Shown: piece by piece, positions 1 through 51,715 of the stretch
How the letters are laid out: the number at the start of each line of letters is the position of its first letter
How positions within the stretch are numbered: the first letter of the stretch is position 1
Assembly (NCBI GenBank): GCA_963713975.1
Contig: OY970218.1
Span: forward strand, 2,496,001-2,560,000
Source of the DNA: an uncultured Chloroflexia bacterium
GTDB taxonomy: Bacteria; Chloroflexota; Limnocylindria; Limnocylindrales; CSP1-4
Direction: 5' to 3'
DNA: 64,000 nucleotides
The notes under the pieces: generated by a model
Seen by the model: only the letters and a program-made list of their open reading frames with translations
What the model was told of the DNA's origin: nothing
Databases searched by the model: none
Position numbers and translations under genes: made by a program

Positions 1-2181
1 CTCGCGGAAGCCGTTGATGTTCCAGCCCGCGGTGGCCTCCTGGAGGAAGCCCTGCCACACGTAGGTCGTGACGTCGATCGAGAACAGCGGGTCGCTCGGC
101 GTGCTGACAACCGTGTTGTCGGAGTTGCCGTTCCAGGCACCGACCGCAAGCGCGTACTCGCCGGCGGCCCGCTCCTTGGCGCTCGGCGCCCCGATGTAGC
201 CATAGGCGTTCAGGTCCTTGGCGTCGTTGTTGGTGCCGGTCTTGAGGGTCGCCGGCCGACGCCGGTTGCCCTCGGTCAGCCGGAACTCGCCCCAGTAGGG
301 GTTCACCTTGGGATCCGTGTTGCCGGCGAGGATGTCGGTCATGACCCCGGCCGCGCCCGCATCCAGCGCCTGTGTCGGGGCCGGCGTGTCGGCTGGACCG
401 AGGACCTCCGTGCCGTTGCTGTCCGTGGCAGTGATGATGGTGGTCTGGGCGACGAGCGAGCCGCCATTGGCGAGCGCTCCATAGGCCCGGACGAGGTCCT
501 TGGGCAGCACCTCCTCGACACCGAGGGCGAACGACAGGCCCGCGTCGACTTGGCCGTCCTTGAAGGTGACGCCCATCTCCTCGGCCTTGGCCTTGACGGT
601 GTCGTTCCCGATCACCGCCATCGCCTTGACGGCGGGGATGTTGAGCGAGAAGCGCAGGGCGTCGGTCACCCGGACGGGACCCCGCTCCAGGTTGTCGGCG
701 TCGGTGGGCGTGTAGCCCCTGCCGAAGTCGGTGACCACGTCCATGAACATCGTCGAAGCAGTGATGATCCGGGCGTCGATGCCGGTGGCGTACACGATCG
801 GCTTGAACGCGGAGCCCGGCTGGCGCCAGCCGTCGGCCAGCACGTCGAATCGGGGCTGCATCTTCTTGGTGGCCTTGAGGGCCGAGGGGTCGGCGGACCC
901 CTGGTAGGCCACGATCTCGCCCGTTTGGTAGTCCATGGCGATCAGCGCGCCGTTGTACAGCCGCTTGTCCCTGAGGTTCGCGATCCAGCTCTCGTAGGTC
1001 AGGCCGCGGGCCTTGGCCGCCGCCCGCGGGCTCTTGGCATGCGGGACGATGGTGGCCGCCTGGACCCATTTCTCGGCCAGGGCCTGAAGCCGCATGTCGA
1101 TCGTGCTCCGGATCACGAGCCCGCCGCGCTCGAGGATGGGGCACGTCTCGGCGCCGTCGCACAGGCGCGTCGTGAGCTCCGCCCGGACCTGGCGGACGAA
1201 CTGCGGGATCACCCAGACGGAGGACCGCTGGGTCGCCAGGACCACCTTCTCGGCCTTGGCCGCCGCGTAGTCCGCCGAGGTGAAGGCGTCACCGGTGAGC
1301 GGCGTGCCGCCCGCCGCGGCCATCTGGTCCAGCACGAAGTTGCGGCGGACCACGATCGGGGCATCCGGCGGCACGACGAGCTGGGTCGCGGTGCAGGTCT
1401 CGTCGGTCTGCGTCGGGTCCACGCACTCCTCGATGGCGTTCTGGACCAGGTCATAGGAGGAGGGCGCCTTGGGCAGGGCGGCGAGGATGGCCGCCTGGGC
1501 CAAGGTCAGGTCCTTGAGCTCCACCCCGAAGTACTCGCGGGCCGCCGCCGCCACGCCGTACGACTCGTTGCCGTAGTAGTTCTGGTTGAGATAGGCGGCC
1601 ATGATCCGCTGCTTGCCCGCCTCGCCCGGATACGCCTGCGTCACGCGGATCGACTGGATGATCTCCTTGATCTTCCGGGACGCGGTGACCTCGATCTGGG
1701 CGGTGCCGTCGTCCGACAGCAGACGCTGGCGGACCAGCTGCTGGGTGATCGTGGAGGCGCCGCGCGCGCGGCCGCGCAACGCGTCGAAGCCTGCGGCCAT
1801 GATGCCCACCGGATCGAAGCCCGAGTTCTCCCAGAACGTCCGGTCCTCGACGGCGGTCGTGGCATCCACCAGCACCGGCGGCACCTGGTCGAACGTGACC
1901 ACCGCCCGGTTGAACTCGCCGAAGCGGGCCAGCTCGGTTGCGCCGGTCCGGTCGTACACCACGGACTGCTCGGGGAGCTCGATCTGCTCGAGCGCCGTCG
2001 GGGCAGGTAGCCCGGTGCTCATGCTCGCGTACGTGGTCACGGCCAAGGCGGCGCCCGTGGCCCCGAGGAGCGCGAGTGCCGCGAACAGCACGAGCCCCAT
2101 GGTGGCGGCCGCGCCAATTCCGCGGCGTCGTGTCGATCGAGGCCGGCCCTCCGCGGGCTGGCTGGACGGGTCGTCGTACAT
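1..2181 (-). CDS. Class A penicillin-binding protein (transglycosylase + transpeptidase), 3' end runs off the window
   Basis: Manual minus-strand translation from ATG at 2181: MYDDPSS, N-terminal TM helix, GT51 motifs EDRTFWENSGFD, GASTITQQL, RKIKEI, YLNQNYYG; transpeptidase motifs QPGSAFKP (SxxK), SLN and KTGT. Not in the ORF track because it is open at the window edge. Confidence 0.93.
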   Translation of the reverse strand, partial: MYDDPSSQPAEGRPRSTRRRGIGAAATMGLVLFAALALLGATGAALAVTTYASMSTGLPAPTALEQIELPEQSVVYDRTGATELARFGEFNRAVVTFDQVPPVLVDATTAVEDRTFWENSGFDPVGIMAAGFDALRGRARGASTITQQLVRQRLLSDDGTAQIEVTASRKIKEIIQSIRVTQAYPGEAGKQRIMAAYLNQNYYGNESYGVAAAAREYFGVELKDLTLAQAAILAALPKAPSSYDLVQNAIEECVDPTQTDETCTATQLVVPPDAPIVVRRNFVLDQMAAAGGTPLTGDAFTSADYAAAKAEKVVLATQRSSVWVIPQFVRQVRAELTTRLCDGAETCPILERGGLVIRSTIDMRLQALAEKWVQAATIVPHAKSPRAAAKARGLTYESWIANLRDKRLYNGALIAMDYQTGEIVAYQGSADPSALKATKKMQPRFDVLADGWRQPGSAFKPIVYATGIDARIITASTMFMDVVTDFGRGYTPTDADNLERGPVRVTDALRFSLNIPAVKAMAVIGNDTVKAKAEEMGVTFKDGQVDAGLSFALGVEEVLPKDLVRAYGALANGGSLVAQTTIITATDSNGTEVLGPADTPAPTQALDAGAAGVMTDILAGNTDPKVNPYWGEFRLTEGNRRRPATLKTGTNNDAKDLNAYGYIGAPSAKERAAGEYALAVGAWNGNSDNTVVSTPSDPLFSIDVTTYVWQGFLQEATAGWNINGFRE

Positions 2182-2723: not shown

Positions 2724-2765
2724 GAGGCTCTCACAGCTCGAGCAGGAGGCTCTCGAGGACTCGCG

Positions 2766-2852: not shown

Positions 2853-2999
2853 GTCTCCAGCCACCCCGCCAGCCTTGCGGCCACCGTGGCGGCGGTCCGG
2901 GGACCCGGTCCGATCATTGCTGACCGGTCCGGTGTCGGTGCCACCGGCCCCTTCGGGCAAACCGAACGATATCGGCGGGGGCCTGGGGTGCCAACCGGG

Positions 3000-3074: not shown

Positions 3075-3119
3075 GGGGTCGTTTCCGGGGGAGGCGCCGG
3101 CCCCCGCGCTGAGCGCGTG

Positions 3120-3266
3120 CCGCCAGCCGGTTCAACCGTCAGGTGAGCGCTCGTTCGAGCCGCTCCGCGACACGTTCCTGGGGGCCCGGGGCGGATCAGG
3201 GCGTCGGCACCCGACGGGTGCGCCGGCCAGCGGCGCAAACGGGCAGGCACCCAACCGTTCAACCGG
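3120..3266 (-). repeat. Dispersed ~140-bp palindromic intergenic repeat, copy A
   Basis: Reverse complement reads GGTTGAACGGTTGGGTG...CGTTTGCGCCGCT...GTCGGGTG...AGCGGCTC...GACGGTTGAACCG; aligns by eye with copies at 12932, 53084 and 56539. Confidence 0.7.
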
Positions 3267-3328
3267 GCAGCGGCTCCTGGGGCGCCAGGCGCGGTTGGCC
3301 CCGGCGCCCCAAACCACGCGACGCCCGG

Positions 3329-3988: not shown

Positions 3989-4030
3989 TCGGCGGGCGCG
4001 GTTGCGCGTCGGGCGCGGTACCGTGGCAGG

Positions 4031-16387: not shown

Positions 16388-16497
16388 ACCCGGACCGGCT
16401 CCACTGAACCCGGCCGGTGTGCCGGGGCACCACAGCCGGTGCCGCTACCGCCGTTCGGCCCCTTGCGCGCCGTCCCACACGGTGGTACAGGTGTGGC

Positions 16498-17031
16498 ATG
16501 ACGCTCACCTCGATGCACTTCCACGTGCCGCGCCGGCTCCCGGTGCTCCTGCTCGCGCTCGCCGTCATGGGGTCATTCGCCGCGGCCAGCCCCTCGACCA
16601 CCGATGGGCGCACCTATGTCAAGGTGTCCAGCCTGACCCGCGCGACCAAGGTGGATCGTGTGGTCGCCTCGCGCGTCAACATCAACCTGCCCATCCGCAA
16701 CGGCGTGATCGGCGGGACGGTGCGGGAGCGGATCGCCTACCACTACCCGGGAACCTCGTGGCCGGGCGGGGACTCGAACACCTACTTCTACGCGCATGCG
16801 CGCGTCGGATCGTTCCTCAACCTCAAGAAGATGCGCGTCGGCGACATCGTGCGCCTGCACCTGGTGTCGGGGGGCTGGGTCCGCTACAAGGTGACCCTGG
16901 TCAAGCGGGTCCGCTGGAACGACGGCAAGTGGACGCTGCTCACCTCGTCGGAGCGACTCACGCTCCAGACCTGCACAGGCAACACCAAGACCGCGGACCG
17001 TCTCGTCGTGGTGGCCAAGCCCCTCGATTGA
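16498..17031 (+). CDS. Sortase (canonical His-Cys-Arg triad)
   Basis: N-terminal hydrophobic segment; YAHAR, TLQTC, DRLVVVA. Confidence 0.85.
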   Translation: MTLTSMHFHVPRRLPVLLLALAVMGSFAAASPSTTDGRTYVKVSSLTRATKVDRVVASRVNINLPIRNGVIGGTVRERIAYHYPGTSWPGGDSNTYFYAHARVGSFLNLKKMRVGDIVRLHLVSGGWVRYKVTLVKRVRWNDGKWTLLTSSERLTLQTCTGNTKTADRLVVVAKPLD

Positions 17032-18156: not shown

Positions 18157-18392
18157 GACCGCGAGGATAGCGGCGGTGCCGATCTGCAACGCAATTGGTA
18201 CCAAGGGCCCACTGGTCACTTGGCATCCGGACCGGGGGAAGTACTATCCGGTAAGTACTTATGCCTATCTCGCCCTGCTCATTTGGGGCGAGAGACCCGT
18301 CTCTGGGGGAGACCGATCGACGGTTCGGGCCGCGTCGCATCCTTGCGCACGGTCGTATTGCGTCATTCCGTGGCGCCGAGGGAGATGTCCGC

Positions 18393-24300: not shown

Positions 24301-26303
24301 GTGGTGACGGCTGGCTGCGCTACTACGTGTTCAAGCCGGCGGCGGCCACCATCGAGGCCTACACCTACAAGGTTCCGCAGGGCGCCACCCTCGGCTCGTT
24401 CGAGGTTGACAGCTCCAGCCAGTTCACGCTGGCGTGGCCGGCAGCGGGGACCGCGTCGGCACCGTTCACGGAGATCGGGGACGCGCCGGTGTCCGGAGGC
24501 ACGGCCTCCATCTCGTGGCCAGGCCTTGACGCGGACACCGAGTACGAGTGGTACGCGGTCGCCAACGACGGCACCGCCACGACACCGAGCGCGACGTGGT
24601 CGTTCACGACGGGTACGGCCGCTCCTGGCACCTTCACCCTGTCGGGCGCGGTCACCGCGGGCGGCTCGCCGCTCCCGGGTGCCACCGTCCACGTCATCCT
24701 CGACGACGGGACCTACATCGGCAACACCGCCAGCGTCGCCGGCGGGGCGTACAGCATCACCCTGGCCCCCGGCACCTACAAGCTGTGGATCCAGCCCAAC
24801 GAGCCGGGCTACGGCGACCAGTACTTCGGCGGCGCCGACCTCGGCACTGCGACGCCCATCGGGGTCAGCGCCAACACCGTCGCGGACGTCCCGCTGGTCG
24901 GGGGCCCCTCGACCTTCACCCTGTCGGGCGCGGTCACCGCGGGCGGCTCGCCGCTCCCGGGTGCCACCGTCCACGTCATCCTCGACGACGGGACCTACAT
25001 CGGCAACACCGCCAGCGTCGCCGGCGGGGCGTACAGCATCACCCTGGCCCCCGGCACCTACAAGCTGTGGATCCAGCCCAACGAGCCGGGCTACGGCGAC
25101 CAGTACTTCGGCGGCGCCGACCTCGGCACTGCGACGCCCATCGGGGTCAGCGCCAACACCGTCGCGGACGTCCCGCTGGTCGGGGGCCCCTCGACCTTCA
25201 CCCTGTCGGGCGCGGTCACCGCGGGCGGCTCGCCGCTCCCGGGTGCCACCGTCCACGTCATCCTCGACGACGGGACCTACATCGGCAACACCGCCAGCGT
25301 CGCCGGCGGGGCGTACAGCATCACCCTGGCCCCCGGCACCTACAAGCTGTGGATCCAGCCCAACGAGCCGGGCTACGGCGACCAGTACTTCGGCGGCGCC
25401 GACCTCGGCACTGCGACGCCCATCCCGTTTGCCGGTGACACGATGCAGAACATCGCATTGGTGGTCACCCTGTCGGGCGCGGTCACCGCGGGCGGCTCGC
25501 CGCTCCCGGGTGCCACCGTCCACGTCATCCTCGACGACGGGACCTACATCGGCAACACCGCCAGCGTCGCCGGCGGGGCGTACAGCATCACCCTGGCCCC
25601 CGGCACCTACAAGCTGTGGATCCAGCCCAACGAGCCGGGCTACGGCGACCAGTACTTCGGCGGCGCCGACCTCGGCACTGCGACGCCCATCGGGGTCAGC
25701 GCCAACACCGTCGCGGACGTCCCGCTGGTCGGGGGCCCCTCGACCTTCACCCTGTCGGGCGCGGTCACCGCGGGCGGCTCGCCGCTCCCGGGTGCCACCG
25801 TCCACGTCATCCTCGACGACGGGACCTACATCGGCAACACCGCCAGCGTCGCCGGCGGGGCGTACAGCATCACCCTGGCCCCCGGCACCTACAAGCTGTG
25901 GATCCAGCCCAACGAGCCGGGCTACGGCGACCAGTACTTCGGCGGCGCCGACCTCGGCACTGCGACGCCCATCGGGGTCAGCGCCAACACCGTCGCGGAC
26001 GTCCCGCTGGTCGGGGGCCCCTCGACCTTCACCCTGTCGGGCGCGGTCACCGCGGGCGGCTCGCCGCTCCCGGGTGCCACCGTCCACGTCATCCTCGACG
26101 ACGGGACCTACATCGGCAACACCGCCAGCGTCGCCGGCGGGGCGTACAGCATCACCCTGGCCCCCGGCACCTACAAGCTGTGGATCCAGCCCAACGAGCC
26201 GGGCTACGGCGACCAGTACTTCGGCGGCGCCGACCTCGGCACTGCGACGCCCATCGGGGTCAGCGCCAACACCGTCGCGGACGTCCCGCTGGTCGGATCT
26301 TGA
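18393..26303 (+). CDS. Giant secreted multidomain protein: N-terminal beta-rich domain, 3 LamG-like, 3 cadherin/Big_9-like, 2 metallophosphoesterase domains, FN3-like, 6 carboxypeptidase-regulatory-like repeats
   Basis: Signal peptide; LamG motif W.HVAATYDG...LY.DG...DE.R.WN three times; ATDADSDPLTY repeats; phosphoesterase 1 GDI/GDNAY/GNHD/WHRP/GHEHWYER; phosphoesterase 2 PDTQ/HLGDI/GNHD/STH/NGH; GAGGGAG RBS. Confidence 0.88.
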   Translation: MLPTLSLQTPAIRRALVAFMAFAMAVTTSVAPVAPVATPATAAGFGDLACTTLTALPVSANTGEKPQSKVWKHDGAWWAVLPTTAATPGSGTWLWKLVGDTWTSVIKLSNNTDTHADALKVGAVTHILLYRGTSSELVSVEYGAGTYAPWSLRPAAQAITLDSGVETATIAVDSTGRMWLASAGTTSVYVRSSVSPYTTWNAPITLGTGVAEDDIAVVTAFDDDKVGVLWSNQNTERFGFKVHADGDAEGTWSADEVPADGSAQNIGLGMADDHMNLAVAADGTIYAAVKTSYDTGGSPKLALLVRRPSGTWDPLYGVSESGTRGIVLLNTSADELLYLATSTEGAGNILARTSPTAAISFGAPTTLMSGSFNEVTSTKQNYTDDLVVLASSGSTSAVGRHCTSGAPPANTAPVAQAGALSTPINTAGNGTLVATDADSDPLTYSIVTNGTKGTAVVTNAATGAYTYTPSAGQTGADSFTFKANDTHVDSNTATVSVTITSGAVDPSLVGWWTMDETGGTTAADSGAAPLNTATTSGNPTFVPGKTGNAIRLNGTSQYASAPDEASLDIANAITMAAWVKPGQYDTQDIIAKDINGSVNGYQLSLATTKSGDDSQRAFVRFNQQTSGDTYRVNAVTMYPIDGSWQHVAATYDGATIKLYIDGTLEGSMPWTGTIATNSTALGIGAQSDNTRWLDGDLDDVRLYNRALSAVEILALAAPGNSAPVAQAGALSTPINTVGNGTLVATDADSDPLTYSTVTTGTKGTAVVTNASTGAYTYTPMAGQTGADSFTFRAYDGTAYSNTATVSVTITDPSADVVMVGAGDISDSGTGDTQTAALINALPSATVFTLGDNAYPDGSASNFSTYYEPTWGAFKARTYPSVGNHDWTNSATGYFPEFASTLAGVSPAGSPNGYYSYDQGTYWHVIVLNTEIDYSAGSAQEIWLRADLAANASKNVLAYWHRPMFSSGNVHGTEVLDRVIWDDLYEFGADLVLNGHEHWYERFAPQTPDGVADAAYGIRQITCGTGGGPRYSLGTLDANSEVHDGSTWGVCKLTLREFGYDYEFIPVAGGIFTDSGSGAVHNAPPPITNFGLQFDGTNDYVTFGAAPGLNAANFTVETWFKWTGGGATTTTGSGGIPDAIPLVAKGAQQAEGSNVDMNYFLGIKAGTGTLVADFEEGVGGSGPLGQNHPIVSTAPITTNVWHHAAATYDGTTWNLYLDGVNVGTATIGEPVRSDSIQHASLGSSLNTTGGTNGFFEGTLDEARIWNVARSQVQIQGTMNSEITSGTGLLARWGLDEGTGTSVASSVGTFPGTLTNGPTWVPGFVPTGPVAPVCSAVAMTTPLNTAADAAPACSDANSDPLTYTIVGAASHGTATVASGQLHYVPTTGYSGPDSFTYRAYDGSAYSNTATVTVTVTAPVTNYGLQFDGSNDYVTFGQATSTLGASTFTLEAWVNRGAGGDLMGTGTGGLGSGTIPQAYPVLTKGCGEGDGSNVDMNYWLGVTSTGVIAADFEADPGGQNYPVIGTNSFPTGEWHHIAATYDGQVWRLYLDGALDTELDLGTARAPRDDSIQNAAIGTSLLSTGIPGTGSSSCQGYFSGAIDEARVWNVVRTGGEIDASWDTEITGPTTGLLGRWGMNEGSGTTIASSVATIPGTLTNGPTWVPGFVPTGGNLPPSAPTNPAPANGATGVAASPTLTVDVAPDPDGDPQTVTFFGRPKPTAGEDFTLVVLPDTQHYTDVDEARANVYRAQTQWIVDKESDLNIAFVSHLGDITEHFDSVEVEWQRADSAMDTLDNNGVPNAVSPGNHDLSSLAATSVYYDQYFPPSRYDLPANPWYGGWLGEEAGQTQRLNKDNYELFTAGGIDFLIIHLEVDMPTYAVAWANDIISRYPDRQVILSTHAFVDTSGNRPNSLITGRSDGMTASAVWTQLIYPNCNVVMVVNGHYPGEGRTTTNNSCGQPVHQVLTDYQSRTNGGDGWLRYYVFKPAAATIEAYTYKVPQGATLGSFEVDSSSQFTLAWPAAGTASAPFTEIGDAPVSGGTASISWPGLDADTEYEWYAVANDGTATTPSATWSFTTGTAAPGTFTLSGAVTAGGSPLPGATVHVILDDGTYIGNTASVAGGAYSITLAPGTYKLWIQPNEPGYGDQYFGGADLGTATPIGVSANTVADVPLVGGPSTFTLSGAVTAGGSPLPGATVHVILDDGTYIGNTASVAGGAYSITLAPGTYKLWIQPNEPGYGDQYFGGADLGTATPIGVSANTVADVPLVGGPSTFTLSGAVTAGGSPLPGATVHVILDDGTYIGNTASVAGGAYSITLAPGTYKLWIQPNEPGYGDQYFGGADLGTATPIPFAGDTMQNIALVVTLSGAVTAGGSPLPGATVHVILDDGTYIGNTASVAGGAYSITLAPGTYKLWIQPNEPGYGDQYFGGADLGTATPIGVSANTVADVPLVGGPSTFTLSGAVTAGGSPLPGATVHVILDDGTYIGNTASVAGGAYSITLAPGTYKLWIQPNEPGYGDQYFGGADLGTATPIGVSANTVADVPLVGGPSTFTLSGAVTAGGSPLPGATVHVILDDGTYIGNTASVAGGAYSITLAPGTYKLWIQPNEPGYGDQYFGGADLGTATPIGVSANTVADVPLVGS
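24630..26296 (+). repeat. Intragenic 282-bp tandem repeat, 6 units
   Basis: Units start at 24630, 24912, 25194, ~25466, 25743 and 26025; identical by eye except a divergent junction at ~25424-25465. Confidence 0.92.
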
Positions 26304-37786: not shown

Positions 37787-38850
37787 TGAAGGGCAGGCCC
37801 CGCGAGTATTTCAGCCGATCGGCCGAGCACCGTGTCCGCCCACCGAGCCGGCGTATACGGACTCGCAAGCCCGCGGCTGATCTGACCCATGTCCACACGT
37901 TCGCGATCTGACAGACCGGCGACATACGTCATGCACGTGGTGACGGACGCGACATCGCCAGTGCGGGCAACCCGACCATTCGCGAAATCATGGACGAGGT
38001 GCGGGACCGCGCCGCAGGCTTCGGTCGCAATGATCGGGAGACCTGCCGTTGCTGCCTCCGACAGCACGACACCCCATGGCTCGAAGCGACTCGGGACGAC
38101 CAGGCACCCGATCACCCCGAACCATGCGGCAAGCCCCTGGGGTTGGACGAACCCACCGTGGCGGACAGTCGGATGCCCACGAACCTCGCCCTCGAGTGGG
38201 CCGGCACCGGCTACGACCAGGCCCCACGGACTTGGCACGGATTGGCGATAGACCTCGTAGGACTGCAGGAGATCGCCGATGCCCTTCTCCGTGGTCAGTC
38301 GCCCCAGGTAGCCGAAGTCGCGTGGCGGTGGTGCCCCCGGCGACGGAGGTGCCGCGAGGGCCTGATGATCAGGACAGAGCAGGCCCGTCCAGATCCGATC
38401 ATCCCGGAAGCCGAGACGTCGTGCGAAGCACGCTTGGCGTTCGCCGGGCAGGAAGACGGCGTCGTACAGGCGTCGGACGTACCACCGGGAACCCGCGACT
38501 CCCAGCCGCTGCTTCGCCGTACCGAGCCACTGGTTGTCCATGCAGAGGACACGCACAGGCACGGGACGAAGGCGGTCCAAGACGTATCGGAATTCGCCGA
38601 TGTGCCATGAGTTGACCAGCAGTACATCCGGTGCGAACCGCTGCAGTTCCGCCAGCAGCATCGTCCGGTCGGGTCGGCCGACGTACTGGACACGCAGCGG
38701 CATCCACGCGAACTGCGCCTCCTCAAAGGGAGCATCCTCCCCCGCTGCCTCGTGGACTAGGAGGAGCTCGACGCCCGGCCTCGAGGCGAGCTCCTTGAGG
38801 CAGGCGTTCAGGTAGCCGCTCATCCTGGACCAGAGGACGGCGATCCTCAT
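37783..38850 (-). CDS. GT4 glycosyltransferase
   Basis: YLGRLTTEKG, PSRFEPWGVVLSEAATAGLP; true start ATG 38850 overlaps the upstream stop. Confidence 0.9.
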   Translation of the reverse strand: MRIAVLWSRMSGYLNACLKELASRPGVELLLVHEAAGEDAPFEEAQFAWMPLRVQYVGRPDRTMLLAELQRFAPDVLLVNSWHIGEFRYVLDRLRPVPVRVLCMDNQWLGTAKQRLGVAGSRWYVRRLYDAVFLPGERQACFARRLGFRDDRIWTGLLCPDHQALAAPPSPGAPPPRDFGYLGRLTTEKGIGDLLQSYEVYRQSVPSPWGLVVAGAGPLEGEVRGHPTVRHGGFVQPQGLAAWFGVIGCLVVPSRFEPWGVVLSEAATAGLPIIATEACGAVPHLVHDFANGRVARTGDVASVTTCMTYVAGLSDRERVDMGQISRGLASPYTPARWADTVLGRSAEILAGPALQ

Positions 38851-39695
38851 TCCGCGGCCACACTCGAGCGGACGACATACCCACCTGGTCCACGCTCGAT
38901 CGTGCTCCCGCCCACGGACTGGGACCTCAACCGGCGACGAGCATAACCGGGGGATCGGACCAGCTTGGCACCCCGCGCCGAGAGCTCGAGAGCCTTGTCG
39001 AATTGATTCAGGTCGCGACCGATCGCGCGCGCCGTGAACCTCCGTCGGTCCTCGTGGTACTGGATCTCGAGGCGCCCCGACCCCGAGATGCCCGCTGCGT
39101 GGAGCCGGAAGGCCGCCCAGTCCGCGCGCACACGGCGGATCCGTGCGCCGGCCAGCGCCAGGTCGACCATCAGCTCGCCATCCCAGCAGGTCAGATTGAG
39201 CGGATTGAAGCCGCCCGTGCGGTCGAATGAGTCGCGCCGGAAGAATGTTGACTGCTGTAGGACGTTCACGCCCCCATAAAGATAGCGGCGCAACCCCCAC
39301 GGTGTGGACTCGAAGTGACGGATCACCCTGTCGTCCGCGTCGATGATCCACCCGTCTCCGTAAACAACATCGGTTGAGGGATTCTCGCGGAAGAAGCAAT
39401 CAACTGCCTGGAGCGCTCCCGCCAGGTGCAGGTCGTCGGCGTTCAGGTAGCCGACCACGGCTCCATTCGTCGATCTGACGCCCTTGTTCAACCCATCGGC
39501 GGGCCCCTGGTCGGGTTCGAGCACAAGTCTCACGCGAGGGTCCCGGAGCGTCGCGAGATACTCCCGGCTTCCATCGGTCGAGCCAGCGTCCACGATCAGG
39601 TACTCGAGGTCCACGTCGCGCTGCGAGAGAACTGATTCCACCGTCGCGGGCAGGTACCGGCCCTGGTTCATCGAGATCGTGACGATCGAGATCAC
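38847..39695 (-). CDS. GT2 glycosyltransferase
   Basis: ISIVTISMNQG, VDAGSTDGS, YLNADD. Confidence 0.9.
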   Translation of the reverse strand: MISIVTISMNQGRYLPATVESVLSQRDVDLEYLIVDAGSTDGSREYLATLRDPRVRLVLEPDQGPADGLNKGVRSTNGAVVGYLNADDLHLAGALQAVDCFFRENPSTDVVYGDGWIIDADDRVIRHFESTPWGLRRYLYGGVNVLQQSTFFRRDSFDRTGGFNPLNLTCWDGELMVDLALAGARIRRVRADWAAFRLHAAGISGSGRLEIQYHEDRRRFTARAIGRDLNQFDKALELSARGAKLVRSPGYARRRLRSQSVGGSTIERGPGGYVVRSSVAAE

Positions 39696-41009
39696 GATTG
39701 TCCCGTGTCGGGTGCGACTTGCCTATCGGACCCGTTGGCAATCAGTCGTAGGCCCAGCAGGCAGAGCGTGATTCCGTATGACGCCGCGATCCGTCCATTG
39801 AACCCGTATGGCGAGAACAGGATGTTCCACATGAGCAACATGGTGGAGAAGACGAGAAGCGGCGCCAAGTCGACACGGAAGGCATAGAGGTTCGCCATGA
39901 GCCAGACGGCCATCGCCAGGATCGCCAGCCAGAACAGCCCGCCCAGGATGCCGGCCCACACCCATGAACCCATCAGGTAGGAGTGAGCGGGGATCAGGCC
40001 AGCGTCGGAGAACTCGGCGCCGACCTCGTACCCGAGGGAGCTGAGGCGCTCGGCCAGCAGGTCCACGTAGGCGAAGTCCTTCGCCCAGGAGCCATGCCCC
40101 AGAATTGGCGAGTCGACGATCGCCTGGGTTGTGACGAGGATCTCGGATCGACCCCCCACGAGGACGCCGAGCTGGCCCGACTGCATCTCGTGTCTTGCTT
40201 CGGCGTCGGCGCCCAGCCAACCAGCAGAGGCTGCGCTGTCGTAGAGCTGGAGGGTGCCAACGACCGCGACCACGAGAAGGGCGAGCCCCATGCCCGCACG
40301 CGTCAGTGAGCGTTTCGAGGAGGCCGGGCGCTCGCCCAGCAGGGCGCTGAATGCGAGGTAGCCGGCTGTCAGGAGGCTCACGCCGCCCAGGCTCCGATAC
40401 CCGAGGAAGAGGTTGAGGATTCCGAAGGCGGCAAACGCTGCCACCGTAGGCCACCGAAGTCGGCCACCAACCGAACCCGAGAATGCGGCCGCCATCCCGA
40501 GCCCGACCGGCAGTGCGAAGGCCCACTTCCACGGATCTGTAGCGGCATACGCATTCGGAACGACTAGGTACCCAAGGGCACCGCCAGTCGCTAGACCCAG
40601 AGCGAACAGGCGCGCCCGCCGCGGTGTCGACGCGAGAACCAGAAATCGCCGCGAAGTCGACAAGCGTGAAGACGATGGCCGCCCATCCCCGAGCAAGGTC
40701 CTCGAACGCGTTCCCGAGGACGAGATCGGTGACGATCTGCCCGAGCAACCAGCCCGCCCAGAGCACGACGAACCATCGTGGCATCGCGAGGCGATCGCGG
40801 GCGCTCCACAGCCACGGCAGCATCGCCAGCAGGAGAAGCTCGCTAAGGATCAGCCGCCCCACGACGGTGAACTCGACGAACGAGACTGCCGGCAGGAGAA
40901 ATGCCCAGGCGTCCAGGGCGACGAGGTGGGGGTGCACGGCACGCTCGGCGACGCTTTGAACTGGCAGCCGGCTCGGGTTCGAGGCCTGCGTGGTGGCAGG
41001 GTTCGTCAC
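39692..41009 (-). CDS. Putative Wzy polymerase / O-antigen-ligase-like membrane protein (one frameshift at ~40644)
   Basis: N-terminal TM part lies in ORF 39723..41009 and the C-terminal part in ORF 39692..40696; removing one base from the AAA run at 40643-40645 joins them (DFAAI-LVLAST). SPILGHGS and PAHSYLM motifs. Confidence 0.7.
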
Positions 41010-42469
41010 AGGTCAGCCCGGATTGCCGGTGGCCCAAGGTCCGAGTCGACGCTCTCGGCGGACGAGGCGTCCGCGTGCTCGAGTCGACGGACCAGACGCG
41101 GCACATACACGAGCGCCGGGACAAGCAGCGCGACAATGATCGCGATCGTCGATCCGATTGCGACACCCGCCACGCCTACCCGCGAGGTCAGGTAGATGCT
41201 CAACGCGAGGTTCAGGAGGGCCATCAGACTCCAGGTCGAAATGAGGAACCGCATCACCTGTGCCCCGTTGAGGAACACCAAGAACGCATTGACGATGGCC
41301 AGGGTGATGGTGAATGCCCCCAATCCAAGGTACAGGCCAGGAGCAGGGGCAACGCCCTGATCGGTCCATGCTTCCACGATCGCCGGCCCCCACATTGCCA
41401 AGGCAACGGTCACTGGGACGATGACCACGATCGTCACGCTCATGGACCGCCTGAGAGTGTGGCGAACCCAGGCGATGTCGTGTCGCGAGATCGCCTCGCG
41501 GTATGCGGGCCAGAGGGGAACCAGGGCGATCACGGCGAGGCCAGCGGGGATCGAGAACAGGCGGTAGACGATCGAGTAGTCGGCGACTGCCGCGGGACCC
41601 ACCACGTGTGCGATCACGAGGCGATCGGTCGAGAACCCAACCACATAGGCGATCTGGAGGGCCATGAAGGCAAGGCCAACTCCTATCACGGATCGCATCG
41701 CGCCGGTCGTCACATCCACGCGTCGGGGCGCCAGCCAAGGACGCTGATGGCGCACCAGAACAACGAGGTTCACCAAGCCCGCCATCAGTGGCCCACTCGC
41801 CATCGCAAGGACGAGAGCAGGGAGGCTCGCGCCTGCCGCGACCGCCGCGAGCAGGAGGATGACCGTCAGGAGGTTCCCGAACCCCGCGAAGGCGCTCTGC
41901 ACGAAGCCCTCCTGGAACGCAGCGCGGGCCTGGCCGGCGAGGCTCAGTGGCAGCCCAATGAGGAACGTTGCTACAAGAGCGGCCGTGGCGGGACCTGCCT
42001 CGGATGCAGCCAGCGGGTCAGCCGCAACGTTGTAGATTGCCGCCCACGGCACGATTGGATAGACGATCACGAACGCGAAGCCCAGGGCCAGCGCGACTGC
42101 GGTTAGCGTTGCCAACCCGGAGGTGAGGTATTGGCGCGCCGCCTGCCTGTCGCCATCTCCGTATGCCCGGGAGATGCTGTTGAGCACGCCGTTGCCGATC
42201 CCAAGGTCGGTCGCCCCGAGGAGGGCAACGACCGATGCGATCGTCATCCACATCCCAAAGCGGACGGGACCGAGCAGACCAAGGGTCAGCGGCACGCTGA
42301 CGAGCACGACGACGAAGGCCGACCCCCGCAGCGCGAGGCCCGCGATGGAACTCGCCACGGCACGACGGTTGCGCTCCGCAGATCGCTGGCTCTCGGTGCT
42401 GCCCGAGATACTGCTGGAGGAAAGCCAGGAGCCTAGCTTCCGTCGTCCGGAAGGCAGCATATTGGCCAT
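41006..42469 (-). CDS. Wzx-type oligosaccharide flippase
   Basis: About 12 TM helices, LGPVRFGMW, DLGIG, TDRLVIAH. Confidence 0.85.
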   Translation of the reverse strand: MANMLPSGRRKLGSWLSSSSISGSTESQRSAERNRRAVASSIAGLALRGSAFVVVLVSVPLTLGLLGPVRFGMWMTIASVVALLGATDLGIGNGVLNSISRAYGDGDRQAARQYLTSGLATLTAVALALGFAFVIVYPIVPWAAIYNVAADPLAASEAGPATAALVATFLIGLPLSLAGQARAAFQEGFVQSAFAGFGNLLTVILLLAAVAAGASLPALVLAMASGPLMAGLVNLVVLVRHQRPWLAPRRVDVTTGAMRSVIGVGLAFMALQIAYVVGFSTDRLVIAHVVGPAAVADYSIVYRLFSIPAGLAVIALVPLWPAYREAISRHDIAWVRHTLRRSMSVTIVVIVPVTVALAMWGPAIVEAWTDQGVAPAPGLYLGLGAFTITLAIVNAFLVFLNGAQVMRFLISTWSLMALLNLALSIYLTSRVGVAGVAIGSTIAIIVALLVPALVYVPRLVRRLEHADASSAESVDSDLGPPAIRADL

Positions 42470-42491
42470 GACCCGAGTTCCTCGCCCGTGC

Positions 42492-45237
<2,746 letters not shown>

Positions 45238-45241
<4 letters not shown>

Positions 45242-46463
45242 GAGGCGATCCCGTCCACGAGGGCGGCGGCGCGGGCCAGGCACGCGGCCGCGGACAGGTT
45301 GGCGTCCGCAAACACGGGTCCGGCCGCACCCATGGCACTCGCGAGGGCGGGCTCCGCGCGAAGCCAGGTGAGCGCTTCGAGGATGGCCCCGGTTTCGTCC
45401 AGCCGGGACCGTGAGTCCCGGCGCCGGATCGCCCCATCTCCCGGGCCGAGGGGCTGTCCTCGGGCACGGCGGCGACGATCGGCCGCCCCGCGGCGAAGTA
45501 GCTCGTCAGCTTGGAGGGCAGGGACATGTCACTCCTGCATGGCCCGCTCCGACAGGAGCAGGACGTCTGCCGCCGACGAGGAGGGTCGCGTAGACGCCGT
45601 CCGGCTGGACCGGCAGGAGGTCCAGCGTGGCGATGCCCTCCGCGGCGTCTCGAAGCCGGTTCGCCTGGTTCCCGCCCCCGACGAGGACGAAGTGGACCGG
45701 GTCTCCCCGCTGCGCGGCAAGGCGGGCCGCATCGACCACTTGGTCCAGGCCCTGCTTGGCGCCCATGTTGCCCGCGTGCAGGACGATCTGGCGGTCGTCC
45801 GGCCAGCCGAAGCAGCCGGCGGATCGACGCCGCGTCCGGCTCGGCGGCGCAAGGCGAGCCCAGTTGGGGACGTGGTGGATCCGGTCCTGGCGCGACGCCG
45901 AGCGAGGTGAGGTACGGGGTGAAGGCATCGGTGACGACCGCCGACCGCCTGGGCCCCGCCTGCCGCCCAGCGCCTCGGCGGCGGCCGTCACGCGGGCGAC
46001 CGTCCCGCCGCCCGCGATGCCGGACTGGCGGGCTGCCGGGCCCATGAGGTCCTGGAACAGGAGACCGTACGGGCTCCGGAACGCGCCGCCCGGCAATCCG
46101 CGCGAGGATGCCGCCGGAGAGGCTGGGCACGACGCCCAGGATCGCGTCCGGGCGGTTGGATCGGGAGGCTCGCGAGGAGTCCCGTCAGCCCGAAGGTGCC
46201 CTCGTAGACGGCCCGCTTGCCGGCCGACTGGGTGCCGGGGACGTAGTGGGCGGCCCGGATGACCGTCACGCCATCGATCTGCTCGGTTGCGAGCAGGCGG
46301 CGGGGCGTGCCGCGGTTGAGCCGCCAGCCGGGGTAGCTGGGCAGGCCGGTGATCACGTGACCTCGTCGCCGCGGGCCGCCAGGTGCTCCGCGAGTCCCGC
46401 GGTGTACGGACCGACACCGCTTGGCTCCGGGCGGTAGTTGATCCCGACGATGAGGACGCGCAT
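45238..46463 (-). CDS. WcaI-like GT4 glycosyltransferase (multiple apparent frameshifts)
   Basis: [63 protein letters not shown] are spread over several frames. Confidence 0.75.
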
Positions 46464-46488: not shown

Positions 46489-48126
46489 TCAGCCGTTGGG
46501 CTCTGTCAGTGCGCCGGTGGCACCCGTCGCGGCGGCGGCCGCCGCGGGGGCGGTGCCCGTCGCGGCCTTGGCGTCCTCGTTCTTGGTCCCGTAGTAGTCG
46601 TAGTAGACGTATTCGTTGGCCGCCCGAGCCGACATCCGGTTGAGCGCGACGCCAAGGACCCGGGCGCCGGCCTTCGCGAGCGCCTCACGGCCGTGCTGCG
46701 TCGCCGCTCGGCGGGTGCGCCCGCTGTCGATGACCAGGAGCGTCCCGTCCGTGATGGAGGCCAGGATCGCGGCGTCGGTCACGGCCTGCAGCGGCGGGCT
46801 GTCGACGATCACGAGGTCCGCTGCCGCCGTCAGCCGCTCCAGGATGGTCCGCATCCGCTGTGAGGCCAGGAGCTCGGCCGGGTTGGGCGGCAGCGGCCCC
46901 GTGGTGACGATCCGCAGGTTCTCCTGCTCCGTGAGCTGCGCGACGTCGTCGATGGTGGCCTCGTCGCCGCCCAAGAGCGTCGTCAGGCCCCAGGCGTTGG
47001 TCATGTCGAACAAGCGGTTGACGCCGGGCTTGCGCAGGTCGGCGTCCAGGAGGATGACATTCCTGCCGGCCTGCGCGAACGCCACGGCGAGGTTGCCGGC
47101 GGTCGTCGTCTTGCCCTCGCTGGGGATGGAGCTGGTGACGAGGAGCGTGCGGACGGGCTCGTCCACGGAGGCGAAGGCGAGGTTCGTGCGCAGCGTGCGG
47201 TAGGCCTCCGCGGCCGGACCGCGCGGGTAGAGGAGGGTGGCGAGGCGGTAGATGTCGCTGCGGCCCTTCTCGCTCTTCATCTTGAGGATGGTGCCCAGCG
47301 TCGGGAGGCCGGTGGCTTCCTCGACGTCCTCGGACGACTTCACGGTGTCGTCCAGGTACTCCATGACGAACGCGATCCCCAGGGCGATGAGCAGCCCGAC
47401 GAGGATCGCGAGCAGGGTGTTGAGGAGCACCCGCGGGGAGGAGGGGAGCGCGGGCGGTGTCGCGGGATCCACGACGGTGACGGCGTTCGCGGTGGACCCG
47501 GCGATGCCCACCAGCGCGGCGTAGGACTGGCGGAGGCTGGCGACCTGTGACTTGAGCGCCGTCAGCTGCTGGTCGTCCTCGACGGTCCGGGCCGGGAGAC
47601 CGGCCAGCCGGTCGATCTCCGCCTGGGTTTCCTCGATCTGCGCCTGGGTGGCCATGACCTGCTGCCCGATGAAGGCCTGGACCTCACCGTTCTGGCCGTA
47701 GACGCTGGCAGACGCGGCGATCATCTGGCTCGCGATGTCGTTGGCGAGGTCCGCCGCAAGCGCCGGATCACCGTCCTCCACCGAGACCGTGACGAGGGTG
47801 GAATCGCGCGCCGCCGTGGACGTCACGAGCTTGCGGAACTCGTCCGGGGTGGTATCGAGTCCGGCGTCCGCGATCACCTGGGCCAGGATGGGGCCGGTAG
47901 TGGCGAGGTTCGCGTACGTCTGCGAGATCCGCTGGCTTGCCAGCAGGTCGTTGTAGTTGACGCCGGACGATGCGCTGGCCTCGCCCACGAGCAGCGTGAC
48001 CTGCGCCTCGTAGACCTTGGGCAGCGAGATCGAGACGAGATAGGCGGAGCCCCCGGCCAGCAGGGCGCCTGCGACAAGCAGCCAGAACCAATGGCGGACG
48101 ATCTGGCCCTGGCGGCGGAGATCCAT
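46489..48126 (-). CDS. Polysaccharide co-polymerase/tyrosine autokinase (CpsC-CpsD fusion, Wzc-like)
   Basis: Wzz-like N-terminus with two TM helices, AEAYRTLRTN, SSIPSEGKT, DADLRKP, DSPP, C-terminal Tyr cluster EYVYYDYY. Confidence 0.92.
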   Translation of the reverse strand: MDLRRQGQIVRHWFWLLVAGALLAGGSAYLVSISLPKVYEAQVTLLVGEASASSGVNYNDLLASQRISQTYANLATTGPILAQVIADAGLDTTPDEFRKLVTSTAARDSTLVTVSVEDGDPALAADLANDIASQMIAASASVYGQNGEVQAFIGQQVMATQAQIEETQAEIDRLAGLPARTVEDDQQLTALKSQVASLRQSYAALVGIAGSTANAVTVVDPATPPALPSSPRVLLNTLLAILVGLLIALGIAFVMEYLDDTVKSSEDVEEATGLPTLGTILKMKSEKGRSDIYRLATLLYPRGPAAEAYRTLRTNLAFASVDEPVRTLLVTSSIPSEGKTTTAGNLAVAFAQAGRNVILLDADLRKPGVNRLFDMTNAWGLTTLLGGDEATIDDVAQLTEQENLRIVTTGPLPPNPAELLASQRMRTILERLTAAADLVIVDSPPLQAVTDAAILASITDGTLLVIDSGRTRRAATQHGREALAKAGARVLGVALNRMSARAANEYVYYDYYGTKNEDAKAATGTAPAAAAAATGATGALTEPNG

Positions 48127-48255: not shown

Positions 48256-50263
48256 TCACGGGGTCGCCCGGGGCGCATAGCGCAGCTCCAGCGTCAGGTC
48301 CTGGTCGAATGTCGTCTCGAGGGTGGCAGTGTCCCCGACGACGGCCAGCTCCGGGTCGGCGTCGGTGATCAGGAAGCCTTCCGGAACACGGATCGTGAGG
48401 GCGAGGGGTCCCGGCAGCAGCCCGGGCTGCTTCTGGATCGTCAGGCGGTAGGTGCCGCCGGTCTCGTCCGCGTCCGCGGCGTACGGGCTCGTCCAGGCAT
48501 AGGTGAGGTTGGTCCGCCCGGCCGGGATCTTGAGGTAGTTGGCGAATACCGCCCGGCCGTTGGCCTCCTCTACGACCGCCGGATCGCTGAGCGCCACGTA
48601 GCTCCCGCCAGAGACCTCCTCGACGCGACTCAGCTCCGGCACCAGGAGCCGGAAGTACATGCCCAGGAGCCGGAGGTCGCCGGCGATGGGCAGTGCCCGG
48701 TATGGGGCGCCTACGTCGGTCTCGATGCCGTTGTCCCAGGTCACCTTGAGGCGGTCCAGGGCGTTGCCGTACTCGTCGATCTGCACCTCGAGATCCAGGG
48801 ACCGGGTGGTGACGGCGTTGAGCTTGGATGTGGGGGCGACGTTGGAGTCGACCGGGTACACGTAGTCGCCGGGATCCTGCCGGATGGCGACCGTCGAACC
48901 CGTTCTCGACGACGAGGGCCTGGGCATCGGGGTCCTTGAACCAGGCGAGCAGGAGCCGACCGCGGCGGTAGGTGTCGGCGTCACCGGCCAGCCGTCCCCA
49001 GCTCTCGGGCGGCAGGCCCAGCAGCGAGGCGAACAGCTGCTGCGCGAAGGGGCCGAGGACGGCCTTGCGTTCCGTGGTCCCGTCGGCCGTCGCCGCCCAG
49101 ATCGCCTGCATCAGCTTGATCGTCGTCTCGCCCGGGGCGATGGTCACGTCATAGCCGGGCACCGCGATCGGCCCCGTGAGCTCGAGCAGGCGGTCGATGG
49201 TGTCGGTGCTGAGCGCGATCACGCCGTCGATATGGGTGTCGCCCGACTCGTTCTCGTAGAGGCGGATGGCGTCCCGGGCGCTGGTGGGGAAGTCCGGGGA
49301 CCAGTTCGCATCGGCAAGCTGCCAGGGCTGCTGCTCGCCCAGCAGGTAGTCGTGCAGCTCCTGCGGGCCCTTGATGAACGGATAGTCCCACGGCAGGTCG
49401 ATGTGGGCGATGTCCTGGAACGCGCTCTCGGTGATCCGGCCCTTGTCGAAGGCGATGATCCCGTAGCTCCCGGTGTAGCCGCCGGTGGGTCGCAGCTCGG
49501 CCGGGTTCTGGGTCAGGACCAGGTAGCGCCGCGGCGCGTCCCAGCCGAGGATCGCGGGCAGCGGGCCGCTCGCCGTGGCGAGGCCGTCCACCATCGGGCC
49601 GTACTCGTCCAGGCGGGTGATCAGGGCGTCGCGCGCGTCTTGCAGCGGGGCCACGAGGCCATCCGGTACGGTGGCCAGCGTCTGTCTCGCCGACTTTATG
49701 GCGGCCTGGACACCGGCGATCGGCTCGCGGGAGGTGGCCACCAGCTCCACGAGCTGGGACAGAGCCGATCCGCCCGCCGGGTCCGCCGCCTGCGCCTCCT
49801 TGATCTCGACGAACCGGCGCCCGATCGCGACGCCGTCGTCGGCCGCGCCGAACAGCTGCCCGGCCGCCGTCACGATGGCGTCGGCGCCCTCGATGTTTGC
49901 GGCCGTGACGGGGATGGCACGCGCGACCGCCACCAGGGGGTCGTTGGCCAGCAGGTATTCCAGGTTGTTGAAGCGGGCCCGGGATGCCGCCAGGTCCGTC
50001 TCGAGGGCATCCACCGTGGCCCGGTCCATGTCCAGGCCCACTTCTCGGATCCGGCCGACCATCTGCTCGAGGTCGCCACGGATCGCCTTCGCGTCGTCGT
50101 AGGCCGGGAGGTAGCGGAAGGCCGCCAGGGCGCCGCCGATGGCGACGAGGACGACCAGGAGCGCCCCGACGCCCAGGCCGACCAGCAGCAGCTTGCGGCG
50201 GCGGGAGCGGACGCGCCGTCGCCGCCGACGTCGGTGGTTCGTGGGTGCGGGATCCTCGCTCAC
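48256..50263 (-). CDS. DUF4012-like membrane-anchored protein (one frameshift at ~48889)
   Basis: Arg-rich N-terminus + TM, helical region, YLVLTQNPAELRPTGG, DANWSPDFP, IDGVIA; C-terminal part with IQKQPG is in ORF 48256..48984. Confidence 0.8.
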
Positions 50264-50973
50264 GACTGCGGCACCGCGATGACGATGAACCGCGGCGCCG
50301 TCGCGAAGTAGGAGGTCGAGGTCTGGAGCGTGAGCTGCTCGGCGGGCGTGGGATCGAGGTACTCCAGGGCATCCCACGGGACCTTCGGGAGGACCTTGGT
50401 CACGACGTAGGTGCGCTGCGTGCCATCGGCGAGGTCGAGCAGGACGATGTCACCCTTGCGCGCGTCCCAGAGCTTGATGAACATGCCCTCGCGGGCGTGG
50501 CCGTAGATGTAGATGTTCGTGCCGCCGCCCGGCCACCCGGTCCCGGGGAAGTGGGCCGCCTTGCCGATCGGGGCATCGATCCCGTCACCCTCGATGATCT
50601 TCTGGTCGATCCCGAGGCGCTCGATACGGATGCGTTTGGCCTTGACCTCGCCGGCGGAGGTGGCGTCGGGCGTCGCGTCCGGGGTCGGTTCGGGCGCTCC
50701 GCTGGTGTCGGGCGCGGGCGTTGACGTCGGGGCGCCGGCTATCGGCGGTTCCGTCGCGGCCGCTGGTTCCGTCGTGGCCGCGTCCGTCGCCACGGCGGCC
50801 GGAGGGGTGGTTGCCGAGGACGCCGTGCCGCGCAGGCCGCCACCCAGGATGAAGGCGAGCGAGGCGCCCGCGAGGACGATGACAAGGACGCCCGCGGCAA
50901 TGACCACGCCACGACCACGGCCGGCCATCCAGCCCGGGCGCTCGGAACGAGGGCGGCGGTCTGGATCGGTCAC
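50260..50973 (-). CDS. Sortase-family protein with Ser at the catalytic Cys position
   Basis: TM anchor, PT-rich linker, AAHFPGTGWPG, YGHAR, TLQTS (TCG at 50317-50319), PRFIVIA. Confidence 0.85.
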   Translation of the reverse strand: MTDPDRRPRSERPGWMAGRGRGVVIAAGVLVIVLAGASLAFILGGGLRGTASSATTPPAAVATDAATTEPAAATEPPIAGAPTSTPAPDTSGAPEPTPDATPDATSAGEVKAKRIRIERLGIDQKIIEGDGIDAPIGKAAHFPGTGWPGGGTNIYIYGHAREGMFIKLWDARKGDIVLLDLADGTQRTYVVTKVLPKVPWDALEYLDPTPAEQLTLQTSTSYFATAPRFIVIAVPQS

Positions 50974-51035: not shown

Positions 51036-51557
51036 TCAGCGCCTCGCCAGGACCCCGCGAAGGACGAGGCCGCCACCGCCTGCAAGCGCCAGCAGGGCGA
51101 GCAGGGTGCCGAGGAATGGCTCCGTGCGAGTGGGCATCGTGCCCGCCAGGGTGGAGGTGCGCGGGAGGCTCGCCGTGGTGATGTTGAGGGTGATCGTGCC
51201 GACGACTCCATCGGCCCTGGCACGAAGAACCCGGCTGCCGGGCACGCAGGCAATGTTGACAGTCGTCTTCGCGACACCGCTGGAGTTCGTGGTCGTCGGC
51301 GTCTTGTTGATCCTGTCCGACTTGGTCACGCGCGACTTCCAGGACCACGCGACCGGCTGGCCCGCGATGCGTTTGCCATTCTTGTCCTGGATCGTCGCCG
51401 AGATCGTGACGTTGACGCCGCACTTGAGCTTGCCGCCGGGCCGGGACACGGAGACGCTCGAGGCGACCTCACCTGCGTACCCGAGGGCGGTGCCGGCAGC
51501 GAAGACGGCGAGCGTGAGGGCAGCGAATGCGGTGAGCCACCGCCGGCGACTGGTCAT
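51036..51557 (-). CDS. Secreted Ig-like (Big_1-type) protein with LPxT sorting signal
   Basis: Signal peptide; SATIQDKNGKRIAGQPVAW, TTNSSGVA; C-terminal LPRTST + hydrophobic helix + RR. Confidence 0.8.
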   Translation of the reverse strand: MTSRRRWLTAFAALTLAVFAAGTALGYAGEVASSVSVSRPGGKLKCGVNVTISATIQDKNGKRIAGQPVAWSWKSRVTKSDRINKTPTTTNSSGVAKTTVNIACVPGSRVLRARADGVVGTITLNITTASLPRTSTLAGTMPTRTEPFLGTLLALLALAGGGGLVLRGVLARR

Positions 51558-51715
51558 CCCTGTCATCTCCCCAGCTTCGGGACGCATCCTCACAGTCGGC
51601 TCACCAAACTACGCGAGCCGCCATGGTTCCCGGCCATCATACGCTCGGGCCGCAACGGCCAATTGGCCCAGGTCGCGGCCTACCCGATCGGGCGTCACTG
51701 GGGCAGGATGGGGGG

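Follow-up and report, generated by a model that had tools for sequence, protein, structure and literature searches.

A candidate serine-nucleophile sortase and its presumed Ig-like substrate at the head of a polysaccharide cluster in Limnocylindria

We analysed a 64,000-nucleotide stretch of DNA from an uncultured, soil-type Chloroflexia bacterium of the Limnocylindria (positions 2,496,001 to 2,560,000 of contig OY970218.1, assembly GCA_963713975.1; hereafter the window), and find that it encodes a sortase-domain protein in which serine occupies the place of the catalytic cysteine. Across a large set of relatives this serine is fixed and under selection, far beyond anything that chance or error would produce. 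Sortases (PF04203) are the cysteine transpeptidases of MEROPS family C60, and to our knowledge they are defined and classified as cysteine transpeptidases throughout, such that every mechanistic model, inhibitor programme and ligation tool rests on thiolate and thio-ester chemistry. From its sequence and genomic setting we put at roughly even chances the reading that the window's protein is an active sortase, using serine as its nucleophile and dedicated to the immunoglobulin-like (Ig-like) protein encoded next to it. No description of a natural serine sortase, and no occurrence of the string TLXTS, was found in the literature searched, a body of work from which most subscription journals and supplements are absent.

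The gene, its presumed active-site residues and a paralogue elsewhere in the window are located as follows.

50260..50973, reverse strand: Ser-type sortase gene, 237 amino acids from a GTG start at 50973, with the stop codon TGA at 50262-50260
50845..50913, reverse strand: predicted N-terminal membrane anchor, residues 21-43, from an AlphaFold2 helix and the hydrophobic sequence
50499-50497, reverse strand: CAC, His159 (YGHAR), equivalent of the catalytic His, from sequence and alignment to the solved sortases 8t28 and 6bwe
50319-50317, reverse strand: TCG, Ser219, in the place of the TLxTC catalytic Cys, from sequence and the same alignment
50292-50290, reverse strand: CGG, Arg228 (APRFIV), equivalent of the catalytic Arg, from sequence and the same alignment
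16417..17031, forward strand, with an ATG at 16498: Cys-type paralogue reading TLQTC, the only Cys-type sortase of this genome

The database gene call for the Ser-type sortase begins at an ATG 15 codons later, giving a protein of 222 amino acids. Residues 115-235 match PF04203 (E 4.5e-17; 62.4 bits against a cut-off of 26.6) over profile positions 1-124 of 125, and the reverse-strand codons ACG CTC CAG ACC TCG ACC TCC read TLQTSTS, within the wider motif LTLQTSTSY. A profile built from 43 family members matches 45 solved sortase sequences and, when aligned to the class C enzymes 8t28 and 6bwe, places Ser219 on the Cys of TLVTC/TLITC and the His and Arg on their catalytic counterparts. The AlphaFold2 model reaches a block-mean predicted local distance difference test score (pLDDT) of 94-99 in the domain, with low confidence in the linker, and each of the top matches listed by Foldseek in the PDB is a class A, C or E sortase (E of about 1e-9; target-normalised template-modelling score 0.5-0.8), the nearest solved structures being class C, A and E enzymes such as 8t28, 6bwe, 7s4o and 9m5i. 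We consider the fold and the residue mapping to be secure. The initial annotation, which had reported a sortase with TLQTS, a TCG codon at 50317-50319, and the His of YGHAR and the Arg retained, is thereby borne out, as is its reading of TLQTC in the paralogue. A basic N-terminus, the anchor helix, a Pro/Thr/Ala-rich linker (approximately residues 44-108) and the catalytic domain follow one another along the chain, a layout whose predicted topology points to a membrane-anchored protein with an extracytoplasmic catalytic domain.

The window's Ser-type sortase contains no cysteine anywhere in its sequence, and so lacks the catalytic cysteine of TLxTC, by which sortases are defined. It also falls below the NCBIfam class cut-offs for class E (28.3 against 160), class D (24.7 against 165), class F (15.7 against 166), GN (16.3 against 158.25) and sortase_fam (29 against 39.35), while no score is listed for the class C model.

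The initial annotation had proposed tabulating the residue at the TLxT[C/S] position across homologues, and this shows that the serine variant is no singleton. A protein search at E <= 0.001 returned 564 relatives; the 120 best of them (72-100% domain identity) comprise 104 with Ser and 16 with Cys in the nucleophile motif. Within these 120, 99 of the 104 Ser-type proteins are devoid of cysteine and in the other 5 it is confined to residues 20-37 of the N-terminal anchor region, which indicates that there is no relocated or spare thiol, and 15 of the 16 Cys-type proteins have exactly one. An exhaustive search of representatives clustered at 50% identity yielded 1204 proteins at E <= 0.001, and when the best 150 were aligned with the query the nucleophile column held C in 80, S in 52 (query included), a gap in 8 and other residues in 11, the last mostly fragments. 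In the complete homologues among the 120 and among the species loci described next, this position is either Ser or Cys, though TGC is also a single step from codons for Arg, Gly, Tyr, Phe and Trp. Finally, a scan of one genome per species gave 158 relatives. We retained 80 loci, almost every one from a record titled as a Chloroflexota, Chloroflexia or Candidatus Limnocylindria metagenome-assembled genome (MAG). Among the 79 that cover the position, 65 have Ser (TCG 37, TCC 26, TCA 1, TCT 1) and 14 have Cys (TGC 13, TGT 1). All of the Ser codons thus belong to the TCN box, from which TGC is one step away through TCC. The His is present in all 75 of the loci that cover it, and the Arg in 77 of 78, with Lys in the remaining one.

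Selection on the serine forms does not appear to be any weaker than on their cysteine counterparts. We compared codon alignments of 74 domains by median pairwise ratios of nonsynonymous to synonymous substitution (dN/dS; Nei-Gojobori), which are 0.284 for the Ser forms (n=43, 903 pairs) of a clade of 63 loci (L004-L066) that share the genomic setting described below (the operon clade), 0.299 for the Cys forms (n=14, 91 pairs), and 0.268 for a second, more distant Ser clade (n=17, 136 pairs). The Ser forms are therefore not under relaxed selection, a possibility that the initial annotation had raised. In the window itself the open reading frame (ORF) is unbroken; it shares 86% identity with its nearest relative and has a dN/dS of approximately 0.17 against locus L004 (dN 0.086, dS 0.511). 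All 74 aligned domains keep His159, with median dS at about 0.7-1.0, and 73 of them keep Arg228, the other having Lys; H141, H159, D130, D175, E212, Q217, T218, P227 and F229 are equally fixed in Ser and Cys forms.

Phylogenetic mapping suggests that the two residues have replaced one another repeatedly. On a careful tree of the sortase domain (127 columns, nucleophile masked), the trait needs 7 changes, of which the starred branches force at least 2, and a single change is allowed in 0 of 200 bootstrap trees. The domain is too short to decide the matter, and the trait was therefore mapped on the adjacent gene, which encodes a DUF4012 protein, using a quick-search tree of 51 loci and 783 columns. 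Here the Ser and Cys states are interleaved: 5 changes are needed, at least 4 are forced by starred branches, and the Ser-linked loci enclose L037/L044, L038 and L045, which are Cys-linked. Constraining the 38 Ser-linked loci to one clade lowers the log-likelihood by 164 units and is rejected by the approximately unbiased (AU) test (p-AU 4.5e-42). Such interleaving indicates that either residue can stand in functionally for the other. Cys forms take the basal position whether the rooting is by outgroup or midpoint, although this does not fix the direction of change. The initial annotation had treated cysteine in close relatives as a potential sign of a miscalled serine; relatives with Cys do exist (14/79), yet as they are orthologues from the same operon, interleaved with Ser forms, they provide no evidence of a miscall.

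Directly upstream of the sortase gene lies the presumed substrate, whose features are as follows.

51036..51593, reverse strand: presumed substrate, secreted and Ig-like (Big_1-like), 185 amino acids long, bearing a signal at the N-terminus (SRRRWLTAFAAL) and a sorting signal at the C-terminus
51039..51167, reverse strand: tripartite sorting signal by direct reading, comprising LPRTST, a 12-residue spacer, an 18-residue hydrophobic stretch and RGVLARR

The Big_1 match of this protein (Pfam E 6.9e-07) lies below the gathering score. Nevertheless, a Big_1 homologue stands directly upstream of the sortase in 51 of the 63 operon-clade loci, and at its C-terminus LPxT[S/D/T]x precedes a helix and a basic tail in 37/41 Ser-linked, 9/9 Cys-linked and 1/1 untyped cases, the four Ser-linked neighbours without the signal looking like frame breaks. 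LPNTST, LPRTDT and LPRTST are the commonest motifs. Among the 12 loci without a Big_1 match, 7 still have an upstream ORF bearing such a signal on a different protein, and in 4 of the remaining 5 the contig extends hardly or not at all beyond the upstream end of the sortase gene. Judged by its sequence, the product of 51036..51593 is a genuine and conserved sorting-signal protein; the LPRTS-type neighbour proposed in the initial annotation is thus real, and a signal of the same architecture is present in 46 of the 50 neighbours whose sortase type is known. A six-frame scan of the window's own genome recovered this neighbour and two or three further candidates with helix and basic tail, which are listed here by the ends of their ORFs on record C1.

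1715681, forward strand: candidate substrate with LPETST
2485133, reverse strand: candidate substrate with LPATDT
2214149, reverse strand: candidate substrate with, perhaps, VPDTAT

The same scan gave no convincing LPxTG-type signal, the two LPxTG pattern matches looking like membrane proteins, and the motif of this lineage consequently seems to be LPxT[S/D]T.

The setting of this pair is conserved as well, with the order Ig-like protein, sortase, DUF4012 and Wzz/tyrosine kinase found at the head of a polysaccharide cluster. In the window its further members are the following.

48256..50264, reverse strand: DUF4012 gene (Pfam DUF4012, E 9.2e-30) with a GTG start
46489..48126, reverse strand: next gene of the operon, a Wzz chain-length determinant fused to a P-loop (BY-kinase-like) domain (Pfam Wzz, GNVR, AAA_31/ParA)
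38847-46417, reverse strand: polysaccharide-synthesis cluster downstream of the Wzz gene

The DUF4012 gene is directly downstream of the sortase in 61/63 operon-clade loci, the exceptions (L023 and L024) being short contigs, and in the window its GTG start overlaps the TGA stop of the sortase (GTGA, 50260-50264), which suggests translational coupling. A complex predicted between the sortase domain and DUF4012 (both from locus L012; alignments A2 and A3) scored 0.46 (runs 0.50, 0.42 and 0.46) against 0.00 for the best control, its runs sharing at least 95% of contacts with a partner pLDDT of at least 88. The mark applied to such scores is reached by 58/80 solved complexes and 2/110 mismatched pairs, and of those 80 only 7 reach it with a score of 0.60 or less, such that the prediction lends weak support to an association of the two proteins. 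DUF4012 has also been found beside wzz in the exopolysaccharide locus of Bifidobacterium longum 105-A, according to passages of PMC5412050 and PMC6744442. The initial annotation's remark on an error-prone region has some basis: when the intact orthologue from L004, a single open frame of 793 codons, is used in tblastn, it matches the window's DUF4012 gene in two frames, one up to 48890 and one from 48903, and this change of frame is either an assembly indel or a real frameshift. The cluster beyond the Wzz gene contains GT1, a GDP-mannose 4,6-dehydratase that is joined to an FkbM methyltransferase or lies beside it, an NAD epimerase, a Polysacc_synt flippase and GT2. Its long ORFs at 43469-45283 and 42492-43958 overlap, suggesting another frame problem or a mis-called start.

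Under the reading that we favour, Ser219 would replace the catalytic Cys as the acyl-enzyme nucleophile, while His159 and Arg228 would keep their usual roles. The enzyme would recognise LPRT|ST in the Ig-like protein encoded directly upstream, cleave after the Thr to form an oxy-ester intermediate, and pass the protein to an amine of the envelope. The window's genome has 5 PF00905 matches to penicillin-binding proteins and makes peptidoglycan, and on account of these proteins the most likely acceptor would be a peptidoglycan precursor. The sortase would probably act together with the DUF4012 protein, its presumed partner in translational coupling, and both genes head a Wzx/Wzz-type polysaccharide cluster. 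Extended to the lineage, the proposal is that Limnocylindria possess natural serine sortases, which employ Ser-His-Arg to cleave LPxT|S/D through an oxy-ester and ligate the product to the envelope, that repeated Cys/Ser switches within one orthologous operon reflect a scaffold able to support both chemistries, and that about half of the genomes examined have no other sortases; this broader proposal we hold tentatively, at a little under even chances. Why serine should be used is a matter of speculation, one possible reason being that an enzyme free of thiols would resist extracellular oxidation. As a comparison for the loss of an exposed catalytic Cys we searched for L,D-transpeptidases (PF03734), and found none in the window's genome, which is 92% complete.

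Several considerations weigh against an active serine enzyme. The statement in the initial annotation that Cys-to-Ser mutants of SrtA are essentially inactive is backed by a secondary passage in PMC4827206, in which Staphylococcus aureus SrtA C184S is said to lose most of its activity, a decrease described as dramatic; the same mutant was used as a Cys-less background in PMC5578623. Such a loss implies that the active site of sortases is not obviously suited to a hydroxyl nucleophile. Moreover, in the 74 aligned domains we detected no residue that covaries with Ser/Cys and could activate the serine: a column-by-column comparison of the Ser, basal Cys, nested Cys and second Ser clades finds no column that tracks the nucleophile cleanly, and the nearest, position 222, is Y in 41/43 Ser forms and Y7/T3/N1 and D2/N1 in Cys forms. 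On the sortase domain itself, the AU test does not reject one Ser clade with a single Ser origin (p-AU 0.243), a result that we attribute to an alignment of only 127 columns, and the interleaving seen on the quick-search DUF4012 tree assumes that two overlapping genes are inherited together. The window's genome also carries a Cys-type sortase, at 16417-17031. A search for PF04203 at E <= 0.01 in 16 genomes, in which the motif of every match was read, found the Ser-type operon sortase in 13; of these, 6 have one additional Cys-type sortase (G000, which is the window's genome, G003, G004, G010, G011 and G013) and 7 have only Ser-type matches (G001, G002, G005, G006, G007, G008 and G009), absences that are provisional in MAGs as they may reflect incompleteness (completeness is not reported for G001-G015). 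The Ser-type locus of G001 is on a record titled as a 4.15-Mb chromosome.

The main alternative, which we think rather unlikely, is that the Ser form is an inert pseudo-sortase, which binds LPxT[S/D]T without cleaving it, whether to chaperone, retain or present the protein or to regulate the polysaccharide machinery, with any processing left to another enzyme. The behaviour of SrtA C184S and the lack of a detected compensating change in the active site speak for this alternative, the window's Cys-type sortase could act in trans, and a binding role would likewise preserve the groove, the Arg and an isosteric Ser. However, His159 has no obvious role in binding and yet is invariant at appreciable synonymous divergence; dN/dS equals that of the Cys forms; interleaving on the tree of the neighbouring gene would demand repeated loss of the nucleophile, always to Ser, or its regain; and 7 of the 13 genomes with a Ser form lack a Cys-type sortase, though the sorting signal is generally kept in Ser-linked loci. 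It is on the alternation of Ser and Cys, the invariant catalytic partners, the lasting substrate signal and the genomes without a Cys sortase that we argue for retained catalysis. With respect to the choice between a transpeptidase and a pseudo-sortase that the initial annotation offered, the data consequently lean towards function without settling between the two.

An active serine enzyme might instead be mainly a hydrolase, in which case the Ig-like protein would be cut from the anchor that holds it in the membrane and enter the polysaccharide layer without becoming linked to the wall. Oxy-esters are more prone than thio-esters to give up the acyl group to water, and subtiligase was for this reason made by a Ser-to-Cys change; the locus, moreover, is a polysaccharide cluster, not a cell-wall cluster. 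Conversely, penicillin-binding proteins carry out transpeptidation through serine acyl-enzymes, and Cys-type orthologues serve the same operon and signal, suggesting the same product; we regard predominant hydrolysis as improbable, and as less likely than ligation by the serine enzyme. That the serine stems from an error of sequencing or assembly, or that the gene is a pseudogene decaying in the window's genome, may be dismissed almost entirely, for although the DUF4012 frame change shows that indels occur in this assembly or strain, Ser is found in 65/79 independent species genomes from many projects, in four different codons, and the window's ORF is intact and constrained.

Homology and fold place the window's protein with the sortases, while its nucleophile sets it apart. 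With classes A-F it shares the beta-barrel fold, the His and Arg, TLxT before the nucleophile and an N-terminal membrane anchor, and with dedicated sortase-substrate pairs it shares a substrate encoded next door that bears LPxT-x, a transmembrane helix and a basic tail. It differs from classes A-F in its Ser nucleophile and in falling below every NCBIfam class cut-off listed, from LPxTG signals in the Ser or Asp that follows the scissile Thr (LPxT[S/D]T) in place of Gly, and from known sortases in being embedded in a DUF4012-Wzz polysaccharide operon. Among its close comparators are the Cys-type orthologues of other Limnocylindria (for example L037, L038, L041 and L050), which have 57-71% domain identity, the same type of signal, the same invariant core and the same gene order (Big_1, sortase, DUF4012, Wzz), and which differ in the nucleophile codon, TGC as against TCC/TCG, by one or two base changes. 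Pairs of enzymes that use either Cys or Ser provide precedents: L,D-transpeptidases (Cys) and D,D-transpeptidases or penicillin-binding proteins (Ser) show that acyl-enzyme transpeptidation can proceed with either residue, and viral 3C (Cys) and chymotrypsin-fold (Ser) proteases that one fold can host both, although these folds differ from that of sortases. Rhombosortase and its GlyGly-CTERM signal, as outlined in PMC3237569, likewise combine a serine enzyme with a C-terminal signal of motif, transmembrane helix and basic tail, but this enzyme is an intramembrane rhomboid protease of unrelated fold with an unrelated signal.

What emerges is a large natural clade, under purifying selection, with Ser in the place of Cys and exchanging with Cys inside one conserved operon. 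If these proteins are active, the sortase fold can run on a hydroxyl nucleophile, and they would be potential ligases that are insensitive to oxidation and alkylation and have a new LPxT-S/D specificity; Ser forms would then also be missed by annotation rules centred on Cys and by thiol-directed inhibitors. If they are inactive, they form an unusually well-conserved family of pseudo-enzymes with a clear binding partner. Under either outcome, a dedicated sortase-substrate pair is linked both with Wzz-type polysaccharide export and with DUF4012, an envelope protein that is widespread but has no known function.

A second Ser-type sortase-like family, distantly related to the first, was found in the same genome and at one of the scanned loci.

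C1:1100394-1100753, reverse strand, in the window's own genome: member of the second Ser-type sortase-like family (ELWLQTSEGP; PF04203 E 8.4e-07)
Locus L003, ORF 1390..2139, reverse strand: sortase-domain ORF of this family

This family resembles the operon sortases in its sortase domain, its His motif (YAHAR) and its origin in Limnocylindria, and differs from them in that the Arg is not conserved and that it is found outside the Big_1/sortase/DUF4012 operon. It has 3538 homologues at E <= 0.001, mostly named 'hypothetical protein'; among the closest 120, Ser occupies the aligned nucleophile position (WLQTSEGP) in 117, and 119 have exactly two Cys, one in YP[LY]CNVA and one at the C-terminus. 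Its members could be sortases whose nucleophile has moved, or pseudo-sortases stabilised by a disulfide.

The second Ser clade mentioned above (L067-L083, LTLQTSTGP) is 45-53% identical to the window's sortase. None of the window's Big_1, DUF4012 or Wzz neighbours occurs at these loci, and an adjacent protein with an LPxT-type signal is present at 1 of the 17 (L080), which places the clade outside the operon described here. At L080 the sortase follows (2710-3882 and 4001-4579) an Ice_binding-like protein (PF11999, E 4.2e-48) with LPSTST, a helix and RRRR at its C-terminus. Within the window, the Cys-type sortase at 16417-17031 lies approximately 1.2 kb upstream of an ORF of 2680 residues (18261-26303, forward strand), which has near-identical repeats of about 90 residues (FTLSGAVTAGGSPLPGATVHVILDDG) in its C-terminal part and shows no sorting signal at its end as listed. 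Finally, locus L118 (G015:C8:86780-87232) encodes a variant of the sortase domain that reads RLTLQTSQG, with Glu in place of Arg (GELVVVAEP) and several Cys elsewhere, and the same SQG/E pattern is found in a few of the 50%-identity representatives.

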